From Candidatus Falkowbacteria bacterium (GTDB lineage: Bacteria > Patescibacteriota > Patescibacteriia > Patescibacteriales > UBA12075): 64,000 nucleotides of DNA. The stretch's first letter is position 1. Every line of letters begins with the position of its first letter. The stretch is taken from assembly GCA_003514005.1 (NCBI GenBank), contig DOSJ01000004.1:101533-165532 (forward strand), read 5' to 3'. This document shows positions 1,500-56,900 of the stretch, piece after piece. A program made the translations under genes and the position numbers. The notes beneath the pieces are model-generated. The model did not search any database. It was not told where the DNA came from and saw only the letters and a program-made list of their open reading frames with translations.

Positions 1500-1822
1500 A
1501 AGCTTTTATCTTTGTGCTTTAACAATACTTCGGCCGGGGAGATTCCGCCAAGGACTTTGTGTGGAAAATAGTTCCAAGCATCAGTTACCAATTCAAGAAC
1601 ATTGCTTAATTCCGAAGCGTCTCCGCCACGATCAAACATGGCCACGACTTTCATCATGTCGTCATTATTCTCTTCGTGGAAAATAACGTCTCGGATATGA
1701 TCCAGAGTAAAATCACTCTCGGTTTCTTTGAGCATGTCCACCAGTTCCTGTTCGATCTCATTTCGACGTTCTAAAATTTGTTGTTTTGATTCTATTTCCA
1801 TAAAATTATTTTGCGAATGCAT
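1496..1822 (-). CDS. hypothetical acidic protein (108 aa) with DUF2384-like C-terminal motif
   Basis: Track ORF. The C-terminal TDAWNYFPHKVLGGISPAEVLL resembles the W..P...LGG.SP.ELL motif of Xre/MbcA/ParS-type antitoxin toxin-binding domains (from memory, unverified). Overlaps both neighbours. Confidence 0.5.
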   Translation of the reverse strand: MHSQNNFMEIESKQQILERRNEIEQELVDMLKETESDFTLDHIRDVIFHEENNDDMMKVVAMFDRGGDASELSNVLELVTDAWNYFPHKVLGGISPAEVLLKHKDKSL

Positions 1823-4020: not shown

Positions 4021-4053
4021 ATTATTTCTATTATAATTTTATCAAATTTTGGG

Positions 4054-7000: not shown

Positions 7001-7158
7001 CGATCAACCAAAACGACATCCTTGTACGATTGGCGTTCTGGATGTTCACCATCAAAAGCAATATCCGGTCCAAAGGCAACGGAATATCCAAGGTCTTCCT
7101 CAAACCATTCAAGGATTGCTTCTTCTAAATCTGATTCAATGTATTTGTAGTGCTTCAT
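4054..7158 (-). CDS. hsdR: type I restriction enzyme R subunit (helicase/endonuclease)
   Basis: 1034 aa. SF2 motor motifs [11 protein letters not shown] (motif I) and [10 protein letters not shown] (DEAH), an N-terminal nuclease-type region ([16 protein letters not shown]), and an operon with hsdM/hsdS. Confidence 0.95.
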
Positions 7159-8753
7159 ATTGTTTTATTAAAAATACAATCAAGTAATTCCTTATAAACC
7201 GTTGTTGCTGGGACAATCTGCTTTGATAGTAATAACTTAAAATCATTTTGATTAATGCCGGTAGTTATACCGCACAAAGACATTAATTCTCCTGTAGCAC
7301 TCTTAACATCTCCATTCTGAATATCTGTAATTTTTGTAGTATATTGTTCGCTGGTCACAGCAGGATATTGTTTTGACACAATTTCAAAATCAAATAGATA
7401 ATTCTCAATTTCTTTTCTTTTCAACATTCTATTCATTGTTGGATTTGCGGCAACAAAATCTTCTCTTTGTTGATCTGTAGTTGATGTTCCATCGGCATTG
7501 ATATCTTTATCTTTAAGTAGACAAAGCTCGACATCCTTAAACGCCTTATTAAGAACCTTAAGAGCAATAGCGGAGTATTTATCAGGTTCTGTGTTTCCAC
7601 CACTTGATATAAAAAGAGTATCCGGTTCACTTTCTTCAAAGATTTTATTGTAAACCTGAGCATCTATTCCGGCCTCTGCACCATTACCACTAGCTTCTTT
7701 TTTACCCTCACAATAGATAATCTTTTTGGGGGCTACTAAACCAGTTAAATCTTCTAACGCTGTTTGAAAAATTTTTTGCCAATTATTTCTACTCTTAACA
7801 ATAGGTGTTAAAGTTTTTGGTTCAGATGCGTAATCACCGTCAAACGCTATCACGGAACATTTATCATTCAAGTTTTCTTTCAAGGCAGTCAGAAATCCTA
7901 TACTGTGAGTTGCGACCCAAAGTTGGCAATTATCTGGTATAATTTTTTCAATTTCAATAAGTAAATTTTTCTGGATGCCAGTGTTTAAATGTAATTCTGG
8001 CTCATCAATGATATATACAGTGTCATCAAATTCTTTACGTTTGAGATACAAATCCAATAGAATATCCACAACCTCCTTCTCGCCGGACGATAAAACATTA
8101 AATTCAAACTCTTTCGGCTGGCTTGGTTTCTTAAAATATAAAGAACCCTTGCCAGATAGAATGTCACCCTCATCTGATATCTCTAAACCAAGACATTTTT
8201 TTAATATTTCGTTTAACTCACCTATAATTTGAGTTTTTGCTTGCTTATCCGTAAGATCGTTAGATTTTCTGTAATCGGTGATATAGATATACAACCTTTG
8301 ATAGTTATTGGTCATTTTATCATCGAGATCAATCGAGGAACTAGCACCAATATTATTCATCTTTATATCGGGAATTCTCTGCAAACTAGTTACATTAAGA
8401 TTTGAATTGTAGCGATATGGATTTCGGTAATTAAAGATTGTATTTTGTTTTCCCGTTGCTTGCTTAGCCGATCTTGTTGTAGAAAAATTACCACTATCAA
8501 AAGTGATTTCAATATTTTGGTGATTATAGTTTGCAACACCCTCCATTGAATGAAACTTGAAGTCCTTTTGCCCAAATTGACCAACGGCTTCGTGTGCGTT
8601 ATTTAAATAGAGCATCCCATCAAATACACTGCTTTTGCCACAGCCATTCGGTCCAACCAAGGCAATTATTTTTGAAGGTGTTTCTCCAAGATCAATAGTA
8701 AGATCTTTAAATCTTTTGTAGCCATTTTTGAATTGTATCTTTTTAATTTTCAT
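7155..8753 (-). CDS. ABC/SMC-type ATPase fused to Toprim/DUF4435-like domain (OLD / GajA / fused PARIS AriA-AriB-like)
   Basis: Walker [10 protein letters not shown], signature-like LSSGEKE, Walker [11 protein letters not shown] and ATHS. The C-terminal third has IIYCEGKKE (Toprim Glu), LLKDKDIN (DxD) and [10 protein letters not shown] (EIENYL box typical of DUF4435/OLD). Its stop overlaps the hsdR start by 4 nt. Confidence 0.8.
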
Positions 8754-8758
8754 AAAAA

Positions 8759-9928
8759 TTAATTTACTCTAATTTTCCCGCTCATCAGTCGAGGTAATAA
8801 AGAATCCCGAACCTGCTCGAGGTTTTTTGTCTGGCTCTCATTTTCGAGAATCATTCCAAAAAATGCAGTCAAAATTTCATTAAATTTATCTAGTGTTTTT
8901 TTGTCAGGAATAATCATCGGGATACTATTCATGTTGGCCTGATTGATTTTTGGCTGAACAGCACCAGTAACAAACGGCATAATATCTACTTGATCCAGGA
9001 ACACTTTTATATATTCTGTCGAAAATCCGTTTTTACCCTGCAAAACATGAGCATGATTGTTGACCCATATTTTACCTTGAACATATTGAACAAATGGCGT
9101 TCCGTCTTCTTTAGCAACCGAACCATCTTCGCCAAGTAATACATATGTCCCGTCAAAAATAAAATCATCCACATAATCCATAATCGAAGTAGCACCGTAG
9201 TAAGGATAACAACCCTGCTTTTTCTCACGTTCTCGACTTGATAGAGGAATACGCTTTGAGTCAAAATTTATTATCGCCTCACCGAATGTACCCATTCTCC
9301 ATCCCTTGGGTAATTCATCGCCAATATCAATAAACCATTTTTTGAATAGTGAGTTTGCCAATATTTCAAGATTTTTATTGATTTTACGATTGAGTTCTAT
9401 TTTGTCATCAAGAGATGAAAGAACCTCAGCAATTTGTTTTTGTTCTGACAATTTGGGAACTGGCCATGCAGTGTCCTTTAAATGATCCCAATCAGCTCGA
9501 GGCATACGAGTACCACTGCTCCCTCCGCTAGCAGATTTAATAAAATCTTCACTGGCGAATAACCAAAATAACCAATCCTGATCAAAACCGGTCTTTGATC
9601 GAGCCACCCAAATGTCTGTTGAGCATATGCCTGAAAATTTAGGCCTGTATACCTTTCTAAAATATGGCCTTAATTTTCCAAACAAAATATCTCCGTCTTT
9701 AAAACGGAATTTATTACTTGTTACATCAGATGATTTACCAACAGAATTAAGAGAAAGAGCTTGTTGGTTTATATGTTCCAACCCTATATAAGAAAGCTCT
9801 TCGTCAGCACTAGGTAAATAGGCATCCTTAACAAGCTCGGCAAATTTATATAACTCCAAACTGATCCATTCCTCTGGAATAGTTCCGATCTCTGTCTCTT
9901 TATATTTTGTGGCGATTTCCGTTTTCAT
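8759..9928 (-). CDS. hsdS: type I restriction enzyme specificity subunit
   Basis: 389 aa with two target-recognition halves separated by the conserved central helix (VPKLSEQKQIAEVLSSLDDKIELNRKINKNLE) and the C-terminal repeat (LEQVRDSLLPRLMSGKIRV). Confidence 0.9.
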   Translation of the reverse strand: MKTEIATKYKETEIGTIPEEWISLELYKFAELVKDAYLPSADEELSYIGLEHINQQALSLNSVGKSSDVTSNKFRFKDGDILFGKLRPYFRKVYRPKFSGICSTDIWVARSKTGFDQDWLFWLFASEDFIKSASGGSSGTRMPRADWDHLKDTAWPVPKLSEQKQIAEVLSSLDDKIELNRKINKNLEILANSLFKKWFIDIGDELPKGWRMGTFGEAIINFDSKRIPLSSREREKKQGCYPYYGATSIMDYVDDFIFDGTYVLLGEDGSVAKEDGTPFVQYVQGKIWVNNHAHVLQGKNGFSTEYIKVFLDQVDIMPFVTGAVQPKINQANMNSIPMIIPDKKTLDKFNEILTAFFGMILENESQTKNLEQVRDSLLPRLMSGKIRVN

Positions 9929-9931
9929 AAC

Positions 9932-10267
9932 TTAAATCAAATTTTTTACAATAAGAAATCCAAATAACCCGATAAAGATAAAGCCAAGCGAGAGCAGAAT
10001 TGCTGTTATTGGATTGTGATGTATTTCTTTCCATGAGATCAATGCCGTGGGGCCGGTATAAACATTCGGTGGTTTAATAGTTGAAAATTTTTGTTCAGCA
10101 ATCCAATAAGATATGCCAATTAGTAGCATTCCTATTCCAAGACCACATAGATGTTTGTTTTGGATAAAATCAATCTTCACAGTGAAAGACATAAAAATAG
10201 CACCTACGCCAAGTAATAGGATTATTTTCCACCAAGTATCTATTTTTAAGCTTTCAAGAAATTTCAT
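9932..10267 (-). CDS. small integral membrane protein (111 aa, ~4 TM) inserted between hsdM and hsdS
   Basis: Track ORF with four hydrophobic segments. It lies 2-3 nt from hsdM and hsdS on the same strand. Confidence 0.55.
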   Translation of the reverse strand: MKFLESLKIDTWWKIILLLGVGAIFMSFTVKIDFIQNKHLCGLGIGMLLIGISYWIAEQKFSTIKPPNVYTGPTALISWKEIHHNPITAILLSLGFIFIGLFGFLIVKNLI

Positions 10268-10269
10268 AG

Positions 10270-11832
10270 TTATTTTATTTCAAACCCAACACTCTTCAGG
10301 TTTTTCTTTATTCTATCCTCGAGCTCTTTAGACTGCTTAAACTGATCTCCAAGTTCGGCGGTGACTTTGGTCATCTTATCTTCAAAAGTTCCGTCGTCTT
10401 CCTCGACATAATCCGAGCCGACGTAACGTCCGGGGGTAAGAACAAATCCATTCTTTTCAACCTCTGTTATTTTGGCCGCTTTGCAAAAACCTTTAACGTC
10501 TTCGTATTTACCGTTGATTGTTCGCCAAGCGTGATAAACACCGGTAATCTTTTTCAAATCTTCGTCTGTAAGCTCACGGTTCTTGCGAGTAACCATCGTT
10601 CCCATTTTACGAGCATCAATAAAAAGAATCTCGTCGTGTCGATTGCGGAATTTATGATCGTAACGATCACGAGAGACAAACCAAAGACACGCTGGAATCT
10701 GCGTCGTATAAAACAGTTGGCTTGGGAGAGCGACAATGCAATCAACCAAACCATTCGTGATCAAGCTTTGTCTGATGTCTCCCTCGCCGGAGGTGTTCGT
10801 TGAAAGCGAGCCATTGGCCAAAACAAAACCTGCGATGCCGGTGGGGGCCAGATGATGAATCATGTGCTGAATCCAGCCGTAGTTGGCATTACTAGCCGGT
10901 GGCACACCGTACTTCCAGCGGACATCGTCTTTGAGCCGTTCACCACCCCAATCGCTGATATTGAATGGCGGATTGGCAAGAATAAAATCTGCTTTTAAAT
11001 CTTTGTGTAGATCGTTATGAAAAGTATCGGCATTCTGCGATCCAAGATTGCCGTCAATACCGCGAATAGCAAGGTTCATTTTGCAAAGCCTCCAAGTGGT
11101 AGGGTTTGACTCTTGTCCATAAATGGCAAGATCGTGAGTTTGACCGCCATGTGCTTCCACGAATTTCTCGCTTTGCACAAACATGCCACCCGATCCGCAA
11201 CACGGGTCATAAATACGACCCTTATACGGCTCGAGCATTTCCACAAGAAGCTTGACCACTGACTGGGGAGTAAAGAACTCACCTCCACCCTTACCTTCAG
11301 CACCAGCAAATCTACCAAGGAAATATTCATAGACACGGCCGAGCACATCTTTGCTTCGGCTGGCTTTATCACCAAGACCGATAGAACTCATAAGATCAAT
11401 AAGTTCACCGAGGCGGACTTTATCAAGATCAGGACGACCGTAATTTTTGGCTAACACACCTTTGAGACTTGGATTGTCCTTTTCAATAGCAATCATAGCG
11501 TCGTCCAAAAGCTTGCCGATCTCTGGTTTCTTGGCGTTGGCTTTTAGATATTCCCAGCGAGCAATTGCTGGCACCCAAAACACACCTTCAGAGATATAGG
11601 CGTCTTTATCTTCTTCTTGACCTTCATAATAATCAGCGTCAGCCTTGATGGATTTGTAGACTTCCTCGAATGAGTCAGAAATATATTTGAGAAAAATCAA
11701 ACCGAGAACCACGTGCTTGTATTCGGCCGGGTCCATGTTATTTCGCATCTTGTCGGCCAGTGACCAGAGCGTCTCTTCAAAGCCGACATTCGCACCGTTT
11801 GATTTTTTATTTTTGGCGATTTCCTTTGGCAT
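10270..11832 (-). CDS. hsdM: type I restriction-modification N6-adenine DNA methyltransferase subunit
   Basis: 520 aa. HsdM N-terminal domain ([32 protein letters not shown]), SAM motif DPCCGSGGM and catalytic LANPPFN. Confidence 0.95.
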
Positions 11833-11835
11833 ATA

Positions 11836-12021
11836 TTATTTATCAATTATTTCATAATTTTCTTTATCACCGTTTACCCGGACATAGTCATCACAACCAT
11901 CAACGGCGATAGACTTACATTGGCAGTAAGTCATTTTTTTCTTGGTATCACCAAAAATCTCATCACCGCATTTTTTGCATTTGATGAAAGTTTGCTTTTG
12001 GGGTTTGTTGGCGATTTCCAT
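11836..12021 (-). CDS. small zinc-ribbon protein (61 aa)
   Basis: CKKCGDE...CQC...GC cysteine pairs. It lies 3 nt upstream of hsdM and 11 nt downstream of the AAA ATPase gene. Confidence 0.5.
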   Translation of the reverse strand: MEIANKPQKQTFIKCKKCGDEIFGDTKKKMTYCQCKSIAVDGCDDYVRVNGDKENYEIIDK

Positions 12022-12032
12022 ATTTAAAAAAA

Positions 12033-13466
12033 TTAGATCAATAAGAAGTAATCTAACGGTACCTTAATAACATTGGCATCTTCTAAGAGAGTAAGAGAGT
12101 TTCGGCAAACTACTACACCGTATTTGGCGGAGCCCACTTTTTTCATAGTACTCCTAACTTGGGTGCCCAGCTTTTCGCCCATACCTACTTCAATTGGGAT
12201 TATATTCTTTTCTGCAATAGTTAGAATAAAATCGGCACCACCCTTTGAACTATCGTGGTTCAAGGCACCTCGACTGCTGGCTACAAACTCACGATATAAA
12301 GTCATGGCAACAATATCTTCCATTAATCTACCCTTTTGTTGAGCAAATATCTGCGGATTGCCGGCAACCGACAAAAAAGCTGATCGCATAGCTGACGACA
12401 TAAACTGATATTTTGACGGCTTTCTTACTTTTTTTGTATTAGAACCATATGGCATAACCCTTATTAACAATTCAGCGTGCTCTAACACTTCGAGAATACT
12501 GGAAATAGTATTAACGCTGGTTTCAAGAGTTTTTGCTAAATTTTGCACGCTCAAAACTTCAGACTCGGCTAGCAGAAATAAAACTCTTTTAATATAACCA
12601 ATGGTTTTTTGATCAAAGCGACCAAGGCTTTGTACATCTTGATTGATAACCTTATCGAGCAACAAAGTTATAGTTTGATAGACACGAGCTTCGTCCTTAA
12701 TCCTAATTGCGAATGGGAGCGTACCAATTTTTAAGTACTCATCAATGTAATGGCGATCTACCTGCGACCAAAAACTAAGCACCGATTGTTCAAAACTTTT
12801 TAATTTATCGTATGCTTCTTTTGCTGATTCTGATGCAAATAAAGCATCTTTGATATTTTTCTTTAATCCAGTGACCGGGTATTTACCATCTTTGATCATC
12901 AAGAATTCGCAAAAACTTGTTGGAAATAATTTCTCAAAAATTGCTCGGCGAATAACATCCGGATTTGTTTGTAAAGAAACAGCAGAGGAACCACTGCAAG
13001 CCACAAAAACCTTGTTTGATCTGTCATAAACAGTCTTCAACACAGATGCCCACTTTGGGTCATATTGTGCTTCGTCAATAAAAATAAATAACGGCTTGGT
13101 CAGTTTTTCAAAACTCTCACCGATTATTTTTTCATAAGCAGATAGCACATCCTTAAGAGATGAGCCGAGAACATTTACCACTTCATCAAGCGAAATATAA
13201 AGCATTCGCTGTTGACCAACCTCTTGGTAATGATTAAGAAACAACTGAGCAAGAATTGTAGTCTTGCCAACACCACGCAGACCGGGAATAATTATCCAAC
13301 GATCTCGAGCTTCCGGATTATGCAAAAAATCCCTCAAATATTTATCAACTTTAATATAAATATTTCTTTGAGGATACTTTTTACCTTGCTCATCTTGCAC
13401 ATAGGACTGTAGCCGAAAAGGGGCTTGGACGAGCTGATTTTGTACATATTTAAGCGTTTCTTCCAT
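12033..13466 (-). CDS. AAA+ ATPase of the AAA_14/DUF4143 type with nuclease-like C-terminus
   Basis: Walker A PGLRGVGKTT and Walker B FIFIDEAQY. The C-terminal GADFILTI...IPIEVGMGEK resembles a PD-(D/E)xK D...E.K arrangement (inference). Confidence 0.8.
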   Translation of the reverse strand: MEETLKYVQNQLVQAPFRLQSYVQDEQGKKYPQRNIYIKVDKYLRDFLHNPEARDRWIIIPGLRGVGKTTILAQLFLNHYQEVGQQRMLYISLDEVVNVLGSSLKDVLSAYEKIIGESFEKLTKPLFIFIDEAQYDPKWASVLKTVYDRSNKVFVACSGSSAVSLQTNPDVIRRAIFEKLFPTSFCEFLMIKDGKYPVTGLKKNIKDALFASESAKEAYDKLKSFEQSVLSFWSQVDRHYIDEYLKIGTLPFAIRIKDEARVYQTITLLLDKVINQDVQSLGRFDQKTIGYIKRVLFLLAESEVLSVQNLAKTLETSVNTISSILEVLEHAELLIRVMPYGSNTKKVRKPSKYQFMSSAMRSAFLSVAGNPQIFAQQKGRLMEDIVAMTLYREFVASSRGALNHDSSKGGADFILTIAEKNIIPIEVGMGEKLGTQVRSTMKKVGSAKYGVVVCRNSLTLLEDANVIKVPLDYFLLI

Positions 13467-13915
13467 ATATTTTATATACTTTTAAAATGATATAGTAACA
13501 TCACTTACTATATTACTCTAGTGATATAGTAAAGTCAAGTGCCTGTTTATCCCCTAAAATAGAGGCTTTTTATAGCCATTTACTAAATGGGTGTTGACTA
13601 TATTTTCCGTATTTCAGCAATAGGACAATAGTGTCTCAAAAGTGAGAAGTGGACTGGAAGTAACCTTAAAGGTAACTTCCAGTTCAGATTTGAAAAAGCT
13701 ATTTTGACCAGTTAGATCACTGTACTGTGCAAAATCGGGACTTTTTGCACACTTCCGAGAAATTTTTAACGGTGCTATAATAAAATCAACAAATAAATAA
13801 TTTTTGCCTCAAGGGGCAACCTGAACGGTATTCCGTGCTCAAGGGCTCGTAATCGCTATCACTTTTTGTGGTATCGGTTACGAGCTCTTTTGTTTCTCGG
13901 GGCATAAGCAAAAAT

Positions 13916-14497
13916 ATGGAAAATGAATATGAAAAATTGGCTTTTCTTAAAGCCTTGATTGATCTTTTAGATCATCAAACAAAAACTCCGAAAAAAGTGT
14001 TTCTGTCGTCATACTTCCCCGGATTTGAGATAGACAGACAAAAGACACTGCTCGGGGAGTTAAAGAAAAACAAGCTGATAAAAAGTTTTATCTGGAAGGA
14101 CGGCGATTTTATAATTACTAAACCAAGCCGATCCGGAATAATTGAGTTTTTTAACAAAATTGAAAATAAAAAGAACAAGCCAAAAGAAACCGGTCCGATA
14201 GACAACAAGATCAGATTTAATGAACAAACCGGAGTGATAAGTATGGGAGGAAAAACCTGCCCTATTCCGATTAATACTAACCAATACTTCCTATGCAAAA
14301 CTATTTTCGCAGTCCCGTTTGGCACACTGGTCAAAGAAATAGACTTTTTGGATTTAATGGACTGGGCAAAGGATAGCAAGGACAGTGTCTATGACGCTAT
14401 GCGAGCAGTCAACAAGAAAATCAAGCGTGATTTGGGAATAGACAAGTTTTTGAAATGGAAAGTTAGACGCATATTTATTGATTACAAAACCGAATAA
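13916..14497 (+). CDS. hypothetical protein (193 aa from ATG; track start 13868 is GTG)
   Basis: Long ORF in the plus-strand module, preceded by an extended -10 like TGCTATAAT at ~13782-13790 and followed by an intrinsic terminator. No recognisable motif. Confidence 0.5.
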   Translation: MENEYEKLAFLKALIDLLDHQTKTPKKVFLSSYFPGFEIDRQKTLLGELKKNKLIKSFIWKDGDFIITKPSRSGIIEFFNKIENKKNKPKETGPIDNKIRFNEQTGVISMGGKTCPIPINTNQYFLCKTIFAVPFGTLVKEIDFLDLMDWAKDSKDSVYDAMRAVNKKIKRDLGIDKFLKWKVRRIFIDYKTE

Positions 14498-14527
14498 GGT
14501 GGAGTCCGTCCTGATTCGGACAGCAAA

Positions 14528-14566
14528 GAGCAGACTGAAAGAAAACGGTCTGCTTTTTTATTTGCG
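14528..14566 (+). terminator. intrinsic terminator
   Basis: agcagac-tgaaagaaaac-ggtctgct stem-loop followed by ttttttat. Confidence 0.6.
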
Positions 14567-14580
14567 GGCCGGCAAACAAT

Positions 14581-14763
14581 ATGCCGAAGCCAATAATCAC
14601 AAAGAAAATACCGCCTCTCACCCCAGTTCAAATGGAGGAAATTTTTATGGACAGATTAGCCGATCTGATTGTCCGGCTTTTAGATTATCGCTACGAGCAA
14701 AAAGAAAAAGAGAAACAAACTAATAATCAAAATGAATATGAAAAACCAAACACCGGACAATAA
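14581..14763 (+). CDS. hypothetical small protein (60 aa)
   Basis: Track ORF. Lys/Glu-rich. Overlaps the next ORF by 32 nt in another frame. Confidence 0.3.
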   Translation: MPKPIITKKIPPLTPVQMEEIFMDRLADLIVRLLDYRYEQKEKEKQTNNQNEYEKPNTGQ

Positions 14764-14995
14764 TTTTACTACCAGCGACTTCTATGTGGCCGCTTTTTTG
14801 CTCGCCTACAAATATCAACTTGTTGGCATAAATAAAACCGATGCTCGCCGGTTTCGTTTTGTCTTTGTTGACCAACCAGGACGACCCCAATTCGTGGAGG
14901 GTTATTTTTTAGGCTATACCGACGTGAACGCCAAGGAATTTGTCTTGGCGATCAAAGAGTTGAAATCACTGATGTATAACGACGCTATCAGTTGA
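14732..14995 (+). CDS. small protein, DUF5659-like (assignment from memory)
   Basis: TSDFYVAAFLLAYKYQLVGINKTDARRFRFVFVD... matches my recollection of the DUF5659 pattern common in small mobile elements. Unverified. Confidence 0.5.
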   Translation: MNMKNQTPDNNFTTSDFYVAAFLLAYKYQLVGINKTDARRFRFVFVDQPGRPQFVEGYFLGYTDVNAKEFVLAIKELKSLMYNDAIS

Positions 14996-15014
14996 AAATA
15001 ATTGAATATGAAAT

Positions 15015-15788
15015 ATGGAAAATTTGCCATTCGAAATAGATAACAATGATTACGTAAAGCTTCCCCGAAGCATCAAGACCGCCCTCGTGGACGGCTATTT
15101 GAGTTTCGAGGAATACTCAATCCTCGTCTGGCTGTGGATCAATGCCAATCCCCGGATCGGCCGAGCTCAAGTAAGCTATGCCGGACTTTCCAAGGACTTC
15201 AAAGAAAAGTATTCCAAGAATCACATCAACCGGTTGATGCTGAACCCTAAGCGGAAGAAGTGGATGTGGTTTCCCGTACAGCAAGGTCGCAGAAGTTCGT
15301 TCCATGTTGATATCGCCAGTTATCCCTTATCAAATGGTGGTTTTGTCAACATTGAAGTACGCCAGAAACAGAAGTTCTGCAGAAGTGAGGATAATATTAC
15401 AGAGCATTCACCAGCAGAAGTGCCGACAGAAGTTAGCGACGTTCAGCAGAAGTTGAAAAGCGATAAAAACGCTTTAGTAGATAGGTTTTCTTTCGGTTCG
15501 GAAAGCTCGCTCGGCAGAAGTTCCAAGAACGACAACGAGAAAGAAAATAAAAACAACCGATCGAATCGTGGTCGACCCGTAAGAGAATATACTCCCAAGT
15601 CTTATGAGGAACAGAAATGTTGGGAGATTGCCCAAGAGCTGGGAGAAAAAGATATGACCTTTATTCTTTCGGCTTTGAAAAGATACGGACTGGCAAGAAT
15701 TGAGGAGGCCTACCGGTCTGTAATGGATCAACCAAACGAGAAAATTCGGCACAAAGGTGCGTATTTCAATAAATTATTAACCCTTTAA
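15015..15788 (+). CDS. hypothetical protein (257 aa), possible DNA-binding/replication-organiser type
   Basis: Long ORF. Winged-helix-like N-terminus (YLSFEEYSILVWLWINANPRIGRAQVSYAGLSKDF) and a C-terminal ...IRHKGAYFNKLL tail of the kind seen in DnaD/replisome-organiser-like proteins (weak). Confidence 0.5.
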   Translation: MENLPFEIDNNDYVKLPRSIKTALVDGYLSFEEYSILVWLWINANPRIGRAQVSYAGLSKDFKEKYSKNHINRLMLNPKRKKWMWFPVQQGRRSSFHVDIASYPLSNGGFVNIEVRQKQKFCRSEDNITEHSPAEVPTEVSDVQQKLKSDKNALVDRFSFGSESSLGRSSKNDNEKENKNNRSNRGRPVREYTPKSYEEQKCWEIAQELGEKDMTFILSALKRYGLARIEEAYRSVMDQPNEKIRHKGAYFNKLLTL

Positions 15789-15809
15789 AAGATACTAAAT
15801 GATACCCAA

Positions 15810-16244
15810 ATGGCAAAAAATGTAGATATAAAAAACGAAAAATATCAGAACGCAATCCGCTTAAAATATAGTGATTTCACTTATTCAGAGATTGCCCAAC
15901 TGCTAAAAGTCTCTCACGTTACCGTAAAGAGATGGTTTCGGTCAGACGGTTTACTCAAAGACGAATACGAACGATATGAAAAAGAAAGAAATAAAGTTCG
16001 TGACAAAGAGACCGATACCGTCCTCATGAAGCATGCCGAAGTCGCATCCAAAATGTTGGTTAGTCTCATGGGTGCTAAAAGCGACGCCATGAAATTCCGA
16101 GCGGCCAAAACCATTCTTGATTTTGTCCGAGGTCCGGCTGGAGGCAGAGACGATGATCTCAATGATGAGGAATATAAAAGAAGTAGTCGTCAAATAGAGG
16201 AAATTTTAGAGAAATACAAGAATAAAAAGACTGTGGGCAACTAA
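15810..16244 (+). CDS. helix-turn-helix protein (144 aa), terminase-small-subunit-like/regulatory
   Basis: YSEIAQLLKVSHVTVKRWF is an HTH. Position just upstream of the recombinase gene. Confidence 0.55.
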   Translation: MAKNVDIKNEKYQNAIRLKYSDFTYSEIAQLLKVSHVTVKRWFRSDGLLKDEYERYEKERNKVRDKETDTVLMKHAEVASKMLVSLMGAKSDAMKFRAAKTILDFVRGPAGGRDDDLNDEEYKRSSRQIEEILEKYKNKKTVGN

Positions 16245-16327
16245 CGCTTAGCTTGTTGCCAAAAATAGCGTATGTTGTGTTTGAAGCTACATCTAAAATT
16301 ATTAGCCAAAATTAAAATGAAAATAAT

Positions 16328-18025
16328 ATGGAACATGCATTAATTTACTGCCGAGTCTCAACCGAGGAACAGGCCGAGGACGGCCACCACTCCCTTGCGA
16401 CCCAGCTCAAGCTCTGCAAACGAGCGATCGAGGAAAGTAACAAATTCAAACTGATAGATGACGGTGTTTTTGAAGACCCCGGACGATCAGCCACCAACAT
16501 GAACCGCCCCGGACTGCAAGACATGCTACTTAAAATCCAAGACGACAAAACAATCAGAGCAGTATTTATTCAAGACACTGACCGACTTGCCAGAAACGCT
16601 CTTGATCACATGCAGATCAAGGCGATTATGAAAAAGCATGATGTTGAACTTTTTTCTGTCTCCCAGCCGGGCATTACCGATAGCCCCGAGGGAAACTTTA
16701 TGGACTTGGTGATTGCCGGTGTGAACCAACTCCAATCCCAAATCACTTCCAGAAAAACTCTAAAAAGTCTTGAGCAGAAATTCTGGGAGGGTTGGTGGCC
16801 GACCGGTGTGGCTGTCGGATATTTAAATGCTGGCGAACCAGACGATGAGAAAAAGAGAATTATTATCGTAGACGAGGAACGAGCCCCACTTATTCAAGAA
16901 GCCTTTAAAATGTATGTGACCGGAGATTATTCGGTCTTTGAAGTTCGCGATGCTTTATACAAAAAAGGTTTTAGAACTCACGCCGATAAACGGCTCGCTC
17001 ACAGCAAGATGATTGAGATATTAAAAAATCCTTTTTACTACGGCGAGATGAGGTGGCGAGGATTAGTTAACACCGGAAAACATAAACCGCTTATAGATAA
17101 AGATTTATGGGAACGAGTCCAACTAGTTATGGCCGAACACAATAGATATGCCTGTCGACGGCAAAAATTCAATTTCATTCTGCGAGGCCTGACCTTTTGT
17201 GCCAACTGCGGTCAAAGATACACCGCCGAACATCATCCTAAGAAAAACAAATCTTATTACCATTGCAACCGATCTGGCGATCAGATTAAATGCCAAGATA
17301 AGTATGTGGAAGTTTGGGATATAGAACAGCAAGTTGCCAACTTGTTCAAGTACATAGAATTCACTCCCAATTTTACCGACAGACTGGTGACCAAGATTGA
17401 AAAGATTTACAGCGGTCGCAAAGAAGTGATTAATAAAGATAAGAAAGCCCTGAATACTCAAAAGATGATGTTTGAAAAGAAACGGGATACAGCCGAGGAA
17501 AAACTTTTTGCCGGATTAATCACTGATGACGACTTCTCCAGAGTAAAAGTTAAAATCAAAGAACAGCTCGAGCTATTGCAAGACGAATTGTATGCCCAAG
17601 ATAAAAAACTCAATATGAGAATCGATGAACTGCAAGATATGCTCTTATTCGTCCGCAATGCTTACGAAGCCTATACCAAATCACCGGATGAAATGAAAAG
17701 ACTATTCCTTGGCCTTTACTGGGAGAGATTTGAAGTAGCCAACAAAAAAATCCAAACCGTAATACCGTCACCGATCATAAGGGGGCTGATGCAAGCCGAG
17801 GACATGGTCTTTACCAAGAAATACAAAGAAATTACCGGTCCGAGAATAATAACCGACTTGGCCGTAGAATTTACACCATTCATAGCCGGCAAATCAAAAT
17901 CCAAGATTGCCCCTAAAACGCAAAAATCCCGACAAATTGCCGAGATTCCTGCAATGATATCCAATCAACCAAACTCGGTTATATTAGATACCGTTTGGGG
18001 TGAGGTACGGGAATCGAACCCGTAA
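16328..18025 (+). CDS. large serine recombinase (integrase)
   Basis: N-terminal resolvase catalytic domain ALIYCRVSTEEQ and DRLARN, recombinase domain, Zn-ribbon CANCGQRYTAEHH...YYHCN...C, and coiled-coil. The last ~10 codons are antisense to tRNA-His. Confidence 0.9.
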   Translation: MEHALIYCRVSTEEQAEDGHHSLATQLKLCKRAIEESNKFKLIDDGVFEDPGRSATNMNRPGLQDMLLKIQDDKTIRAVFIQDTDRLARNALDHMQIKAIMKKHDVELFSVSQPGITDSPEGNFMDLVIAGVNQLQSQITSRKTLKSLEQKFWEGWWPTGVAVGYLNAGEPDDEKKRIIIVDEERAPLIQEAFKMYVTGDYSVFEVRDALYKKGFRTHADKRLAHSKMIEILKNPFYYGEMRWRGLVNTGKHKPLIDKDLWERVQLVMAEHNRYACRRQKFNFILRGLTFCANCGQRYTAEHHPKKNKSYYHCNRSGDQIKCQDKYVEVWDIEQQVANLFKYIEFTPNFTDRLVTKIEKIYSGRKEVINKDKKALNTQKMMFEKKRDTAEEKLFAGLITDDDFSRVKVKIKEQLELLQDELYAQDKKLNMRIDELQDMLLFVRNAYEAYTKSPDEMKRLFLGLYWERFEVANKKIQTVIPSPIIRGLMQAEDMVFTKKYKEITGPRIITDLAVEFTPFIAGKSKSKIAPKTQKSRQIAEIPAMISNQPNSVILDTVWGEVRESNP

Positions 18026-18071
18026 CAGGAGCGCCACAAGCTCATGTGATAACCGTTTCACCAACCTCACC
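17996..18071 (-). tRNA. tRNA-His (GTG), intact, with encoded G-1 and CCA
   Basis: Hand-folded: G-1 + GTGAGGT / TG / GTGA-AACGGTTA-TCAC / A / TGAGC-TTGTGGC-GCTCC / TGTT / ACGGG-TTCGATT-CCCGT / ACCTCAC / C / CCA. Confidence 0.9.
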
Positions 18072-43875: not shown

Positions 43876-44062
43876 TTCACTGTCGTTTATTGTTTAAATT
43901 GGTGCTTGCATTTTATTTAATATATTGTATAATAAACAAAGAATAAAAACTGCATACACGCCTGTAATTAAATCTTTGGAAAAATACCCCTAATATTAGG
44001 GAAAGGCGGCCAAAGAACTTGCCCTAGGGCGGGTTAAGATGCTTTTTTTTATTTGTAATAAT

Positions 44063-45298
44063 ATGACAAAAATAGACGAAAAAGAAATTAGCCGAGATGA
44101 TTTCAGCAAGATGCTGGATGATTATAAATTCAAGGCGCCACAAGTCGGTGAATTGGTTACCGGCGAAGTTATTTCCGCTTCCAAGGCTGAAGTAAAGCTA
44201 GATATCAACGGAATCATGACCGGCGTAGTGCGCGGTCCAGAGCTATACGAAGAAGACGAAGAATATGCAGGATTAAAACCCGGAGAAACCGTAGAGGCTA
44301 CCGTATTGGAAATGGAAAATGAGAATGGTGAAATTGAGCTTTCATTTAAGTATGCCGGACAAGAAAAAGCTTGGGAAGGCTTGCGTGAAGCTGAGAAAAG
44401 CCGTTCGGTTATCAAGGTAAAAGTAATTGATGCGAACAAAGGCGGACTTTTGGTAAAATATCGTCAGATCTCCGGGTTCTTGCCAGTATCGCAATTGGCG
44501 CCGGAAAATTATCCGCGCATCAATGGCGGTGACAAATCAAAGATTTTGGATAAACTGCGCTCTTTTGCCGGACAAGAGTTTGAAGTAAAGGTTATGACTT
44601 TGAATGAAAAAGAAGACAAGATAATTTTCTCGGAAAAAGACGCATGGAGCGAACGCCAGAAAGATACTATTTCTAAATATCAAGTCGGGGCAATTGTTGA
44701 AGGCGCTATTACCGCCATTACCGATTTCGGCGTATTTATCAGCTTTGGCGAGAACTTGGAAGGACTAATCCATATCTCTGAGCTGGCTTGGCAAAGGATT
44801 GATGATCCGGCAGAGCTATACAAAGTCGGCGATAAAATCCAGGCCGAAGTAATCAGCTTGAGCGATTCCAAAATATTTTTGAGCGCGAAAAAACTGATCA
44901 AAGATCCATGGGTGGAAGTAAGTCAGAAATATAAAATCGGCCAGATTGTTAATGGTACCATTATCAAAGTTAACCCTTTTGGGCTATTTATTAAGCTCGA
45001 TGAAGATATTCATGGTTTGGCGCATATCAGCCAGATCGATTTGGCGCCAAAAGAAAAGATCAATGACAAATTCAAATCTGCGGATAAATTGAATTTTGAG
45101 ATCGTATCAATCGAAGCCAAAGAGCATCGTTTAGGCTTGGCTTATTCCGAGGAAATCGCGAAGATGAAAGAAGGCGAAGTGCGGGTTAAGAAAGGCGCGG
45201 CTGTTAAAGAAGAAGTTAAAACAGAGGTTGAAGATGAAGCGAAAGAAGCGAAGAGTGAGAAGAAGAGTAAGAAAAAGAAAGAGGAAGCAGTTGATTAG
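44063..45298 (+). CDS. rpsA: 30S ribosomal protein S1 (four S1 domains) with Lys/Glu tail
   Basis: Repeated S1 OB-fold units (GELVTGEVIS..., VIKVKVIDANKGGLLV, GAIVEGAITAITDFGVFISF, GQIVNGTIIKVNPFGLFIKL). Start taken at MTKIDEKE. Confidence 0.88.
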   Translation: MTKIDEKEISRDDFSKMLDDYKFKAPQVGELVTGEVISASKAEVKLDINGIMTGVVRGPELYEEDEEYAGLKPGETVEATVLEMENENGEIELSFKYAGQEKAWEGLREAEKSRSVIKVKVIDANKGGLLVKYRQISGFLPVSQLAPENYPRINGGDKSKILDKLRSFAGQEFEVKVMTLNEKEDKIIFSEKDAWSERQKDTISKYQVGAIVEGAITAITDFGVFISFGENLEGLIHISELAWQRIDDPAELYKVGDKIQAEVISLSDSKIFLSAKKLIKDPWVEVSQKYKIGQIVNGTIIKVNPFGLFIKLDEDIHGLAHISQIDLAPKEKINDKFKSADKLNFEIVSIEAKEHRLGLAYSEEIAKMKEGEVRVKKGAAVKEEVKTEVEDEAKEAKSEKKSKKKKEEAVD

Positions 45299-50614: not shown

Positions 50615-51184
50615 ATGATTAACAAGATTTTCATTCAAAAACTAAAGAAAGAACATGAGGAGAGCAATAACGAGAGAAGACAGATAATCAGTTTGGCAAA
50701 TATCGTTTTGCACGATTCCAAACGGGTGATATTTTCCTTGCATCGTGGCGATATGACTAAGGCCGAAGAAAGTTTAGTGGAGATTGAAAAAATATTAATG
50801 AAACTTGAAAAAAACTTTGGTTATGAACGCGTTTATTCCGAAGGCGCGTACAAAGCGGCGGTTGAAGAGTATGCCGAAGCCAAGACTTTGCATATGGTAA
50901 TTAACGGGAAAAAGATTGATAAATTCAGTGGCATCAAGCTGGATTACGAAACATATTTGGGCGGAATCTGCGACCTGACAGGCGAGCTTGTCCGCCGCGC
51001 AACAAACGAAGCCGCAAGCGGAAATCGAGATGAAGTAACGCGCGTAAAAAAAATTATCAACGATATCATGGCTGAACTAATCGAATTCAATATGTCCGGT
51101 TATCTACGAACCAAGTATGATCAAGCGCGCGGCAATCTGCGCAAGATAGAACAGATGGATTACGATTTGAAAATAAGAGGATAG
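50615..51184 (+). CDS. translin-family-like protein (tentative)
   Basis: All-helical 189-aa protein. YLGGICDLTGELVRRA resembles the translin/TRAX Y..G..D..GEL.R motif (from memory). Confidence 0.5.
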   Translation: MINKIFIQKLKKEHEESNNERRQIISLANIVLHDSKRVIFSLHRGDMTKAEESLVEIEKILMKLEKNFGYERVYSEGAYKAAVEEYAEAKTLHMVINGKKIDKFSGIKLDYETYLGGICDLTGELVRRATNEAASGNRDEVTRVKKIINDIMAELIEFNMSGYLRTKYDQARGNLRKIEQMDYDLKIRG

Positions 51185-52426: not shown

Positions 52427-52924
52427 ATGAAAATAGCAATTATCGCCGATATTCATGATAATCTCGTAAACCTTGAAAAGTGTTTGCGTTATTGTTCCGG
52501 GCAAAAAGTTGAAACATTACTTTGTTGCGGTGATGTAACAAATTTTGACACGCTTGAATATATATCAGAAAATTTTCCTGGTCAGATTTATTTGGTTCAG
52601 GGGAATATGGAGATTTATGAAGAAAAAGATGTTTTAAAATTTTCTAATATAAATTTTTTAGGTCGAGTTGGACGCATTGTTTTGGATAAAAAAAGTATCG
52701 GACTTTGTCATGAGCCGTTTTTAAAAAATAGCGCTTTAAAACTCGGCGCTTGCGACTTTATTTTTTACGGCCATACGCATAAGCCGTGGATAGAAGAGAA
52801 TGAAGGATACAAATTTATCAATCCCGGAACTCTGGGCGGCGTTTTTCAGCGCGCGACCTTTGCTTTGTGGGATACGGATAATGCGGAGCCGGAGTTGAAG
52901 GTTTTGGATTTGATAAAAGGATAA
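52427..52924 (+). CDS. YfcE/MJ0936-type metallophosphoesterase
   Basis: IAIIADIHDN, CCGDV, LVQGNME and YGHTHKP. Confidence 0.85.
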   Translation: MKIAIIADIHDNLVNLEKCLRYCSGQKVETLLCCGDVTNFDTLEYISENFPGQIYLVQGNMEIYEEKDVLKFSNINFLGRVGRIVLDKKSIGLCHEPFLKNSALKLGACDFIFYGHTHKPWIEENEGYKFINPGTLGGVFQRATFALWDTDNAEPELKVLDLIKG

Positions 52925-53014
52925 ATATTAAAAAAAATTGTAATAATAAATTATTTTTTTTATTTAATTTTAGCTAAAATATTAATAATTATCACATATT
53001 TTCGCATTTTGCTA

Positions 53015-53043
53015 TTGACAAAAAGATGAATATGTGATAGCAT
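53015..53043 (+). promoter_or_regulatory. putative promoter TTGACA-N17-TAGCAT flanked by a 10-bp inverted repeat
   Basis: ttgaca 53015-53020, TGa-tagcat 53035-53043. The inverted repeat atcacatatt (52991-53000) / aatatgtgat (53029-53038) brackets the -35. Confidence 0.45.
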
Positions 53044-53146
53044 GTTGTTATTAATCCTGAAAAGGAAAAATATAAGAATGTAGTACATTGACAATCCTCA
53101 CTTGTTTTTAACCGATCATTTAACCTGAAAGGAGGTGATGATAGAT

Positions 53147-53197
53147 ATGCGCCGTTTTAATACCAGAAAACGTAATTTTTTTGGAATGAAAAAATGA
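53147..53197 (+). CDS. micro-ORF (16 aa, MRRFNTRKRNFFGMKK; an in-frame ATG also lies at 53138)
   Basis: AAGGAGGTG at 53129-53137, 9 nt before the ATG at 53147. Very basic peptide. Confidence 0.25.
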   Translation: MRRFNTRKRNFFGMKK

Positions 53198-53268
53198 TCC
53201 TGCCCGGCTCCAGCCTGCGAGTCCACGCGAGCTCTCTGAAATCGCGTTACACCCCAAGGAGGTGAAAA

Positions 53269-53298
53269 ATGACACAACGGTCGTCTAGTTACGGGTAG
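53269..53298 (+). CDS. micro-ORF, 9 aa MTQRSSSYG
   Basis: Perfect SD AAGGAGGTGA (53256-53265) 3 nt upstream of the ATG. A paralogous copy lies 132 nt downstream. Confidence 0.4.
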   Translation: MTQRSSSYG

Positions 53299-53400
53299 TG
53301 AAATTACACCGGTTTGTAATAAACCTGCCCCCGGGTTGAATGCCCACATGCGGAAAAATTCAAGGTTACCCTGAATAACCACTCACCACAGGAGGTGATC

Positions 53401-53430
53401 ATGACACAACGGCCTTCGAGCTATGGGTAG
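53401..53430 (+). CDS. micro-ORF, 9 aa MTQRPSSYG
   Basis: AGGAGGTGA (53390-53398) precedes the ATG. It differs from the first copy at codons 5-8, and three of the four changed codons are synonymous. Confidence 0.4.
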   Translation: MTQRPSSYG

Positions 53431-53987
53431 CAGTTTCACTGTTGCTGAAAAAAACAAAATATACTAAGAAATAATGACCCGGAACTGACCCGCCCTACCT
53501 GGCCGCCATAAGCGCGCGCATGTAACGCGGCTCCCTACACCCGCTATTTTTCCCAATATTCGGGTGATTGTTTGGCGATTCAGTTTGGAAAACGGCCGGG
53601 GGATTTCCTGATGAAATCCAGCCCCGCCACTATATCCTCGAAGAAGTATCGGTGCCAAAACTGGTTGCGCTCCACCTTTATCGCCCATTGAGTGCACCTG
53701 CTTATCGGACCGATGTGGCTGGAAAACCAGACCACAAATGTGAAAATCCCTCTTGAATGAGGGCTATGACCGGGAAGAAGTCCTGGTTGAAGAAAGAGAT
53801 AAGTAAAAAGTATTCCCGTCGAAGGATGGGGAAATTTCCGGGAAAACATCCCGGTTTGTGTAACCGGCCTATCCTGAATGAATGTTGGCCGTCCCACCCC
53901 TTACCGTGTTCTGCAGACATGGTAAGGGGTTTTTTATATAAAAAAGCGCATAGTAACTATGTGCTTTTTAAATATTTGAAACTAAAA

Positions 53988-56900
53988 TTATCCAAGCGCT
54001 TTTTTCAAAAACTTACCAGTATGTGTATCGGTCTCCGCAACTTCAAGCGGTGTGCCTTGTGCAACAATATAGCCGCCTTTGTCGCCACCTTCTGGGCCGA
54101 GGTCAATGATGTGATCGACGGATTTTATTACGTCTAGGTTGTGTTCGATAATTAAGACGGTGTTACCTTTGTCAACCAGTTTGTTTAATACACCCAATAA
54201 GCGTTTAATATCTTCAAAATGGAGGCCGGTGGTTGGTTCGTCCAGAATATAGAGGGTTTTGCCAGTAGCGCGGCGCGAGAGTTCGCTAGCCAGCTTGATG
54301 CGTTGGGCCTCACCTCCAGATAGTGTCGTGGCAGATTGACCGAGTTTGATATAGCCTAGTCCAACCTCAAATAGGGTTAACATTTTGGTGTAAATAGTCG
54401 GGATATTTTTGAAAAAATCCATTGCTTCTTCGATCGTCATATTGAGTACATCGGAAATGTTTTTTCCTTTATAAAAAATATCAAGTGCTTCTTTGTTGTA
54501 TCTATGTCCATGGCAAACTTCGCATTCTACATAAACATCGGGCAAAAATTGCATTTCGATTTTAACCATGCCGTCGCCGGAGCAGGCTTCACAGCGGCCG
54601 CCGACAACGTTAAACGAGAAACGTCCGGCTTTGTAGCCTCTTATCTTTGATTCGGGTAAGCCGGCAAAAAGATCGCGGATAGGAGTGAAGGCGCCGGTAT
54701 AGGTAGCTGGATTGGAGCGCGGTGTTCGGCCGATTGGTGATTGGTCAATATCGATTACTTTATCAATAAAGCCCAGGCCTTCAATACGGTCATGTTTGCC
54801 TGGTTCGGCTTTGGCGCGGTAAAATTTTTTGCTCAAAGCCTTGGCAAGAATATCGGACATAAGGGTTGACTTGCCGGATCCGGATACACCGGTGATTGCG
54901 ATTAGCTTGCCCAAAGGAAATTCAACATCAATATTTTTTAGATTATGTTCGCTGGCGTTATAAATTTTGATCGCTTGCCGCAGTCCTTTGCGATAGGTTT
55001 TTGGGGCAATAATCGATTTTTTACCGGATAAATATTGCCCGGTCAAAGAAACCGTGCTTTTTTTGATCTGCGCTGGAGTTCCGGCCGCGATGATATTACC
55101 ACCATGTTCGCCCGCACCAGGGCCTACGTCAATTAGCCAATCAGCGGCATTCATGGTTTCTTCGTCATGTTCGACAACAATAACCGTATTACCGATATCG
55201 CGCAGTTTTTTGATAGTTTCGATTAGTCTTTTATTGTCTCTTTGATGAAGTCCGATTGAGGGTTCATCCAAGATATATAAAACTCCGACAAGCGATGTGC
55301 CGATCTGATTTGCCAAACGGATGCGTTGGGCCTCTCCGCCCGAAAGCGTGTTGGCCGCGCGGCCGATTGTTAGATAGCTAAGGCCGACATTGTTCAAAAA
55401 ATCCAAACGCGCGCAGATTTCTTTGATAATTTGGGTAGATATCTTTTTTTCTTTGGCGCTTAGCTCTTTGCTTTCCGCCATTTCACAAAAAAATTCTTTG
55501 GCTTTATCAATCGTTTTTGTGCTAACATCATGAATGGAATGGGAAAGAATTTTCACACCCAAAATCTCTTTTTTCAAGCGTTTGCCTTCGCAAGACGGAC
55601 AGATAAGTACGCGCATGTATTGCTCGATCTCTTTTCGTACCCAGTCGGATTCGGTTTGGTTGAAACGGCGTTCCAGATTTGGGACAACACCTTCAAATTC
55701 TGTCGAGAGCTCGCCGGAAAAGCGTTCGCTTTCGTAGTCAACGCTATAGTTTTTTTTGCCAGTGCCATATAGCACAATATCAAGCTGTGCCTTGGTCAAA
55801 TCTTTTATCAAAGTATTCAGATCAAAACCGTTTTTTGTAGCAACCGTACCAAGAATACGCATGAGCCAAGTTTGCCCGGTGGTAGTGCTGTGCGACCAAG
55901 GGCGGATTCCGCCTTGGGCGATTGTTAGGTTCTGATTTAAAATTAATTTTGGATCTATTTCAAGCTTTGTACCGATTCCGGAACACTCCGGACATGCGCC
56001 ATGGGGAGAATTAAACGAAAAATTGCGTGGTTCCAATTCAGGCAGACTGATGCCGCAATCCGGACAAGCAAAAAGCTTGGAATAAGTAATGTCTTTATTA
56101 TCCGCGCTTTTGCTTTCAGTCGCCCCTCCCCAGTCTTGGGAAGGGGATGGGGGTGGGGTGTTTTTTTTAATCGTAGGCGATACTGTTATCAATCCATTTC
56201 CCAAATCAAGTGCTTTTTCTACCGCTTCGGCAAGCCGTGCGCGGTCTTCGTTTCCATCCAGATTAAAGCGGTCAATAACTATTTCAACAGTATGTTTTTT
56301 TTGTTTATTTACTTCCAGGTCTTCAACCTCATCCAAAGTATAGTAAGAGCCATCAAAACGAACTCGGCTAAAACCGGCTTTGGCAATGCCGACCAAAATA
56401 TTTTTATGCTCACCTTTTTTGTCTTTGATTAATGGGGCAAGGATGGTAAGATTGGTTTTGGCAAACATCCGGGTTACGTTATCGACAATCTCGTCAACCG
56501 TATATTGGCGGATTTTTTTTCCGCATTCCGGGCAATGCGGTACGCCAATACGCGCGAAGAGTAGGCGCATATAATCATATATTTCTGTAATCGTACCAAC
56601 GGTCGAGCGTGGATTGTGCGGTGCCGTTTTTTGGTCTATTGAGATAGCAGGCGACAAGCCCTCGATCGAATCAACATCCGGCTTGTCCATAAGCCCGACA
56701 AATTGTCTGGCATAGGCCGAAAGTGACTCAACATATCGTCTTTGCCCCTCGGCATAGATAGTATCAAAAGCCAAAGAAGACTTGCCGGATCCGGAAAGTC
56801 CGGTAATCACGACAAATTTGTCGCGCGGTATTTCGACATTGATATTCTTGAGATTATGAACGCGTGCCCCCTTTATTTTTATTGAGTTATTGTTTGACAT
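53988..56900 (-). CDS. uvrA: excinuclease ABC subunit A
   Basis: Two ABC modules ([36 protein letters not shown] twice), zinc modules and 970 aa. Confidence 0.97.

Follow-up and report, generated by a model that had tools for sequence, protein, structure and literature searches.

INTRODUCTION

Very short open reading frames (ORFs) are part of several described bacterial systems. Leaders of the cat, cmlA, erm, and trpL types combine a very short ORF and its own ribosome-binding site (RBS) with alternative hairpins and a terminator, and it is their C-terminal residues that matter most. Minigenes of the lambda bar type have 2 to 3 codons; translation itself has the effect, and no peptide is conserved. 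In Stab-SD elements (cryIIIA type, Bacillus), a near-perfect complement of the anti-Shine-Dalgarno (anti-SD) sequence holds a 30S subunit on the RNA, and no start codon is needed. The transcript of mccA, the 7-codon microcin C precursor gene, is short, abundant, and stabilized by ribosomes, and short ORFs of 2 to 8 codons are translated reiteratively (PMC4231749, PMC6495379). Here, we describe a pair of 9-codon ORFs, referred to as the twin, in a stretch of Candidatus Falkowbacteria bacterium, assigned to GW2011_GWC2_38_22 by an identical UvrA and a member of the candidate phyla radiation (CPR). The whole stretch analyzed, 64 kb in length, is called the window, and coordinates are window positions throughout. 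In the reading that we favor, and to which we give about an even chance, the twin represents two copies of an RBS-plus-mini-ORF module carried on a small, independently transcribed, clade-restricted polycistronic mini-ORF RNA.

With mccA, the locus shares a tiny ORF behind a strong Shine-Dalgarno (SD) sequence on a short transcript predicted to end at a terminator; AGGAGGTGA stands 2 to 3 nt from the ATG of a 9-codon ORF. The ORFs here have 9 to 14 codons, however, and not 7. Moreover, adenylation by MccB requires a C-terminal Asn on MccA (PMC6495379), whereas the two copies of the window and the single copy of a sister strain all end in Tyr-Gly-stop, and a Pfam scan of 45 window ORFs revealed neither mccB (ThiF/MoeB-like) nor any other mcc gene. 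Membership in the MccA type was rejected on these grounds, and mccA is retained only as a possible mechanistic analogue. A preliminary description of the locus had proposed either leader peptides that control a downstream structured RNA or tiny secreted or modified peptides. The latter proposal lost its footing: the 45 scanned ORFs comprise housekeeping genes, restriction-modification genes, and unknown genes, none of which encodes a modifying enzyme or an exporter, and the peptide ends in Gly, not Asn. Other precursors of ribosomally synthesized and posttranslationally modified peptides were also rejected, as radical SAM, YcaO, lanthipeptide synthetase, ATP-grasp, and peptidase-exporter genes are absent from the same 45 ORFs.

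Stalling and attenuator leaders sit upstream of the regulated gene on the same transcript, whereas the twin transcript has no downstream gene and the RNA that follows the twin is missing in the sister strain. Dual-function small RNAs (sRNAs), such as RNAIII/hld, SgrS/SgrT, and SR1/SR1P, resemble the putative unit in extending from promoter to terminator over a few hundred nucleotides and in joining a structured RNA to a short ORF. By consensus, the locus has a promoter and a terminator of its own; both are found in the sister strain L119, and the predicted promoter also in the relative L123. Those sRNAs differ in bearing one ORF of 26 to 43 codons, where the twin RNA would bear two or three of 9 to 16. 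Unlike Stab-SD elements and bar minigenes, the twin has a run of seven final codons that look selected at the amino acid level.

RESULTS

Twin copy 1 (53269-53298, plus strand; ATGACACAACGGTCGTCTAGTTACGGGTAG) encodes MTQRSSSYG*, and twin copy 2 (53401-53430, plus strand; ATGACACAACGGCCTTCGAGCTATGGGTAG) encodes MTQRPSSYG*. The sequences of the two ORFs, the distance of 132 nt from start to start, and the spacing of the preceding motif were all confirmed as first described: AGGAGGTGA at 53257-53265 is followed by AAA and the ATG of copy 1 (3 nt), and AGGAGGTGA at 53390-53398 by TC and the ATG of copy 2 (2 nt). The statement that the copies differ mostly by synonymous changes was likewise borne out, with 5 nucleotide changes and a single amino acid change, Ser to Pro. 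These differences lie at ORF positions 13, 15, 18, 21, and 24; position 13 is a first codon position, and the other four are third codon positions. Similarity between the copies is confined to a 42-nt island of 81% identity that runs exactly from AGGAGGTGA through the stop codon (blastn), and the 30-nt pattern of the twin has 0 expected matches in the shuffled window. When five random substitutions were simulated, an intact ORF with at most one amino acid change resulted in 0.7 to 2% of runs (P of ~0.007 to 0.02). The other two sense frames of the twin show 4 amino acid changes, compared with 1 in the ORF frame. The twin substitution pattern alone is suggestive and not decisive.

The sister strain L119, whose flanking genes are 4.4 to 4.9% divergent (~95% identical) and differ mostly at third positions, carries a single copy of the module, AGGAGGTGAAAA ATG ATC TGG ATC CCA TTG GCC CAA CGG CCA TCA AGC TAT GGG TAG (MIWIPLAQRPSSYG). 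Its ORF contains an in-frame insertion of 15 nt, retains start and stop, and ends in QRPSSYG*. Over the last eight codons, two changes, CCT>CCA and TCG>TCA, are all that separate L119 from copy 2; both are synonymous, a pattern with a P of ~0.05 to 0.08 in simulation. In the codons common to the three copies, all variable sites are positions 13, 15, 18, 21, and 24, four of them third codon positions, and at positions 15 and 18, which fall in four-fold degenerate Ser and Pro codons, each copy has a different base. Indels inside ORFs measure 15 and 3 nt, while those elsewhere in the intergenic spacer measure 1, 1, 1, 6, 1, and 13 nt.

Together, these data support the proposal, made in the preliminary description, of purifying selection on a translated peptide: in L119, start, stop, and the final seven codons persist, and the substitutions relative to copy 2 are all synonymous. 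Frame-breaking indels or stop codons, which that description had named as evidence to the contrary, were not found in L119, and the 15-nt insertion is in frame. Comparison of frames in homologues, a check that it had called for, agrees, with 4 amino acid changes in the other sense frames and an antisense frame that is stopped in L119. We infer that purifying selection acts on the C-terminal heptapeptide QR(S/P)SSYG and leaves the N-terminal part unconstrained (MT versus MIWIPLA). A selected C terminus would mean that the peptide is of consequence, whether after its release or while still a nascent chain on the terminating ribosome, and the mini-ORFs are probably translated.

Two other accounts of the frame were tried. 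The antisense frame of the twin (LPVTRRPLCH/LPIARRPLCH) contains two synonymous Arg swaps and mimics a conserved peptide; it was rejected as an ORF because L119 carries a TGA stop in it, while the sense frame is never broken. An alternative genetic code was rejected as well, since TGA serves as stop in 3 of 36 window genes.

A block of ~540 nt (53300-53837, plus strand) is absent from L119 and present in the window and in L120, as delimited with nhmmer and MAFFT; nhmmer aligns L119 only to window positions 52926-53299 and 53838-53987. The block comprises the spacer between the copies, copy 2, and most of a G+C-rich hairpin array. In the favored reading, the twin arose when one module was duplicated in this strain, and the origin of the block itself is compatible with duplication, insertion, or deletion.

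An additional AGGAGGTGA at 53130-53138 lies 8 nt before the start of ORF1 (53147-53197, plus strand), a reading frame of 16 codons (MRRFNTRKRNFFGMKK). The motif thus occurs three times in 64 kb, against 0.19 expected, with all occurrences within 270 nt of each other. In L123, where ORF1 (1932-1978) has 15 codons (MRSLTVTKRIHHIKE), an in-frame 3-nt indel is found and the peptide is mostly different. The ORF1 initiation region, a block of the form GAAAGGAGGTGATGATA(A/G)ATATG, is nearly invariant in L123, and the first AGGAGGTGA with its spacer is the best-conserved stretch there. The leader upstream of it is conserved in L123 as well. Judging from these comparisons, the start signals, length, and frame of ORF1 are retained as far as L123, and the peptide sequence is not.

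Elsewhere in the window, SD sequences appear to be used rarely, and the genome looks SD-poor: in a crude survey, AAGGAG was found upstream of 3 of 47 long ORFs, and most starts are preceded by A/T-rich leaders. The three AAGGAG-led ORFs start at 57066, 58600, and 63382, and none of their products has a Pfam match. The window also encodes a protein with S1 RNA-binding domains (44039-45298). In Parcubacteria, the anti-SD motif was detected in only 48% (PMC9297842).

The twin lies within a 1,063-nt intergenic spacer (52925-53987), flanked by a Metallophos_2 phosphoesterase gene (52427-52924, plus strand) and by convergent uvrA (53988-56900, minus strand), which has a terminator hairpin of its own. 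Phosphoesterase and uvrA are also the neighbors of the module in L119 and L123. The G+C content of the spacer is ~50% in its body, compared with 20 to 30% at its edges. A consensus scan located a promoter-like site, TTGACA-17 nt-TAGCAT, at 53015-53043 on the plus strand (10 of 12 matches, plus a TG upstream of the second hexamer), and its −35 hexamer and a ATATGTGATA block are retained in L119 and L123. A second candidate promoter at 53088 was rejected, as it is not conserved in L123. Around the −35 hexamer, a perfect 11-nt inverted repeat (TATCACATATT/AATATGTGATA; 52990-53000 and 53029-53039) has the appearance of an operator; in L123 its right arm is conserved and its left arm matches at 8 of 11 positions, as counted by eye.

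At the other end, a pattern scan identified an intrinsic terminator at 53896-53937 on the plus strand, with a 15-bp stem followed by a T run. It is retained in L119; there, a C in the 5′ arm is replaced by U, and the pair persists as a G-U wobble. No credible ORF was found from 53431 to the terminator, and the next gene is the convergent uvrA. In the first 222 nt of the spacer, which include the promoter-like site, the leader, and the first RBS with its ATG, the window and L119 differ by 4 substitutions, whereas third codon positions of the flanking genes are 11 to 33% divergent. As judged from these retained signals, the transcription unit, with its own promoter-like site and terminator, appears to be real and to predate the twin.

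For all AGGAGGUGA sites, a short hairpin is predicted in which GGA occupies the loop and GGUG(A) is paired. The hairpin at 53115-53142 (plus strand; pair probabilities of 0.75 to 0.89) contains the first AGGAGGTGA, with GGUGAU in its 3′ arm; the sole L119 substitution in it, A53118 to G, leaves the pair as G-U. The hairpin CACC-CCAAGGA-GGUG at 53250-53264 (plus strand; pair probability of 0.91 to 0.92) half-sequesters the second AGGAGGTGA, and an equivalent, UCACC-CCAGGA-GGUGA, is predicted in L119. The third AGGAGGTGA is half-sequestered by the hairpin UCACC-ACAGGA-GGUGA at 53383-53398 (plus strand; pair probability of 0.71 to 0.82), which was also recovered as an inverted repeat in the pattern scan. 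A CsrB/RsmZ-type sponge was not indicated, with only three GGA-loop hairpins in the RNA and no CsrA among the 45 window ORFs.

Downstream of copy 2, composition and predicted folding delimit a G+C-rich (~50%), hairpin-rich segment without a credible ORF (53431-53885, plus strand), most of which is absent from L119. Repeated CCGGGAA(G/A)AA..CC(C/U)GG units were noted at 53761-53788 and 53829-53856 in this hairpin array. Within the segment, 53630-53643 (plus strand) is the predicted long-range partner of copy 2 codons 5 to 9 (53414-53426), with pair probabilities of 0.81 to 1.0 across the predicted ensemble of the 896-nt RNA. Each of the three stop codons is also predicted to be base-paired, with a partner that differs from copy to copy: CUGCCC at 53200-53205 or 53325-53330 for copy 1, a local hairpin for copy 2, and a 9-bp hairpin in L119. 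Two alignable strains were available, and both the stop-codon pairings and the long-range helix are predictions. No convincing antiterminator alternative common to the window and L119 was found. At the gathering threshold, Rfam 15 identified only two tRNAs in the window; at an E value of ≤10, only terminator-like chance matches were obtained for the spacer. Known RNAs, such as RNase P, transfer-messenger RNA, and riboswitches, were rejected.

Relatives that carry the element are L119 and L120, both members of the 90%-identity cluster, and L123, found by protein search. The L120 spacer is identical to that of the window, and the L123 contig, with a phosphoesterase 73% identical, ends at the ORF1 stop codon. 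Over 127 loci, nhmmer gave matches only in L001, L120, L119, and L123. Gene order is fully retained in L125; in L126, a different gene occupies the position of the spacer. In the equivalent spacer of L125, a 70-amino-acid lysine-rich ORF with its own GGAGG site was observed (3547-3759, minus strand). The gene arrangement common to the window and L125, pilB-translin-permease-phosphoesterase-uvrA, includes a Translin-family gene at 50615-51184 (Pfam E value of 2e-21).

Searches farther afield yielded no relative of the element. The uvrA homologues (84, 81, and 81% identical) have different downstream neighbors and no related RNA. Phosphoesterase relatives in species-representative and metagenome contigs reach at most 48% identity, and nhmmer found nothing in 117 loci. 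The 896-nt RNA had no blastn match in phages and plasmids. A concatenated six-frame translation had no match at an E value of ≤10 among 5.8 billion proteins, which argues that the region is not a decayed protein gene. In viral contigs, the triple-SD spacing pattern returned 50 unrelated arrays of small phage genes and was dropped as unspecific, and the single match to the ORF1 initiation block is the start of an ordinary 178-amino-acid phage gene. In the collections searched, the element is restricted to one species-level clade and one relative.

Outside this locus, the region 1806-18070 has the appearance of a defense or mobile island. It contains a D12-class adenine methyltransferase gene and a type I restriction-modification system comprising hsdR (4054-7158), an AAA ATPase gene, hsdS (8759-9928), and hsdM (10270-11832). 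A large serine recombinase gene (16328-18025) overlaps at its end a tRNA-His gene (17996-18070, minus strand).

DISCUSSION

In the polycistronic mini-ORF reading, the combination of short ORFs with long anchors would keep a ribosome on the RNA and let it translate repeatedly, which is the weakest step of the proposal. Repeated translation would give a high yield of peptide and a stable, ribosome-protected transcript, and with the module duplicated in tandem, this strain would obtain twice the dose. The G+C-rich block downstream would be a strain-specific addition and not a target of regulation by the ORFs.

Several observations weigh against this reading. The coding evidence comes from three copies, approximately seven substitution events, and one species-level clade. 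In ORF1 of L119 (2120-2170; 16 codons; MCLFNTRNRNFYGMKK), all 4 substitutions are non-synonymous. The three RBSs are predicted to be half-sequestered in hairpins, and their complementarity of 10 to 11 nt is to the canonical 16S 3′ end, which may not be that of the host. The invariant codons CGG and GGG (53278-53280 and 53293-53295 in copy 1; 53410-53412 and 53425-53427 in copy 2) are the rarest for Arg (7%) and Gly (9%) in 36 window genes, which plain selection at the peptide level does not predict. Unrelated sequence occupies the position of the element in five relatives (L121, L122, L124, L125, and L126, with phosphoesterases 77, 73, 71, 63, and 61% identical), so the element is dispensable. 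The pattern GGAGGTGA N1-5 ATGACNCARCGN(13)GGNTAR had 0 matches in 185,579 species-representative genomes or Joint Genome Institute (JGI) metagenome contigs, collections that evidently lack the source genome, as the window's own sequence was not returned; CAACGGNCNTCNAGYTAYGGGTAG had 0 matches in viral contigs (IMG/VR).

Pairing within the RNA is a further concern. The preliminary description had named, as evidence against selection on a peptide, substitutions that prove to be partners in an RNA helix. This was found in part: the helix between 53414-53426 and 53630-53643, a 12-bp prediction from a single sequence, pairs 3 of 5 copy 2-specific bases (positions 15, 18, and 24), while L119 has no such partner. 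Because those bases pair in the predicted helix, part of the twin divergence may have arisen at the RNA level, and with GGGUAG also predicted to be paired, the same may hold for some of the conservation. The helix nevertheless leaves the coding reading standing, because L119 without the partner still varies only at third positions and because positions 16, 17, 19, 20, 22, and 23 are invariant in three structural contexts.

Could the RNA be a structured noncoding RNA, with the AGGAGGUGA hairpins and the apparent ORF as structural or ligand-binding modules and the frame incidental? Such an RNA would account for a predicted fold that beats shuffled sequences (z of −6.0 for the whole 896-nt transcript and −3.75 for the short L119 version), for a G+C content of ~50% between flanking stretches of 20 to 30%, for the placement of every RBS in a hairpin with a GGA loop, and for the predicted pairing of all stop codons and of copy 2 codons 5 to 9 with 53630-53643 through copy 2-specific bases. 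We nevertheless consider it unlikely. The best-folding part is missing from L119 (the G+C-rich segment alone has a z of −2.96), the ORF-bearing 5′ part reaches a z of only −1.18, and no Rfam family matched at an E value of ≤10. Helices do not produce variation with a period of 3; the pairing partners of the ORF differ in each copy, yet the six positions listed above never vary, and it is the antisense frame, never the sense frame, that is broken in L119. The stop-codon stems predicted in all three copies would also suit regulatory leader ORFs, in which translation or arrest at YG-UAG melts these helices and sets the fold, stability, or termination of their own transcript. A conserved C terminus with a free N terminus is found in arrest peptides, CGG and GGG, which never vary, are the codons used least often for Arg and Gly, and in L119 the terminator lies ~60 nt beyond the ORF. 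However, the stems are different in each copy, we found no convincing antiterminator alternative shared by the window and L119, and the large domain downstream of the ORFs is dispensable. Nor is there a downstream gene: the terminator points toward the end of uvrA, a convergent gene equipped with a terminator hairpin of its own. Leader ORFs of this kind are therefore quite improbable. As for control of the downstream structured RNA, the role first suggested for a leader peptide, L119 lacks 53300-53837 yet keeps the ORF, so that such control cannot be the conserved role, and there is no gene downstream.

The functional elements might instead be the anti-SD-complementary sites, which would bind the 30S subunit through the 16S tail for RNA stability or ribosome titration, the ORFs serving only to recycle ribosomes. 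Three sites with 10 to 11 nt of complementarity stand out where long ORFs almost never have an SD sequence, and in L123 it is the first site and its spacer that are best conserved, not the ORF1 peptide; but an ATG within usable distance and an open frame come after each site, and the synonymous-only variation and in-frame indel of the twin ORF would go unexplained. We regard this account as very unlikely. Equally small is the chance that the locus has no function, being a recent local duplication in a fast-evolving spacer whose synonymous look is due to luck. The spacer does turn over fast: strains are separated by large indels, and relatives carry other content. The twin's antisense frame LP(V/I)(T/A)RRPLCH, itself conservative, illustrates that five changes readily produce such patterns. 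Against luck stand a joint probability of ~1e-4 to 5e-4 for the twin pattern, the L119 pattern, and the in-frame indel (independence assumed), and start, stop, and RBS sequences that are perfect in three copies while the sequence between and around the copies has diverged beyond alignment. A last and speculative possibility, for which we see only a slim chance, is that, in a bacterium initiating translation largely without SD pairing, the RNA is a ribosome-engaging device and not a carrier of peptides: the three anti-SD complements with their mini-ORFs would capture 30S subunits, QR(S/P)SSYG-UAG would be a nascent-chain signal (for example, for cue-dependent stalling), and the RNA would act in trans as a regulator or sensor of translational capacity.

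The practical weight of the element is limited, as it is narrow in distribution, dispensable, and has no known partner or phenotype. If translated, the ORFs of the polycistronic mini-ORF RNA would rank among the shortest genes for which selection is evident at the sequence level, and would be the first such case noted in a CPR bacterium. CPR bacteria have tiny genomes, descriptions of regulatory RNA from them are few, and this host appears to have few SD-led genes; in such a setting, the locus may serve as a test case for what a very strong RBS does.

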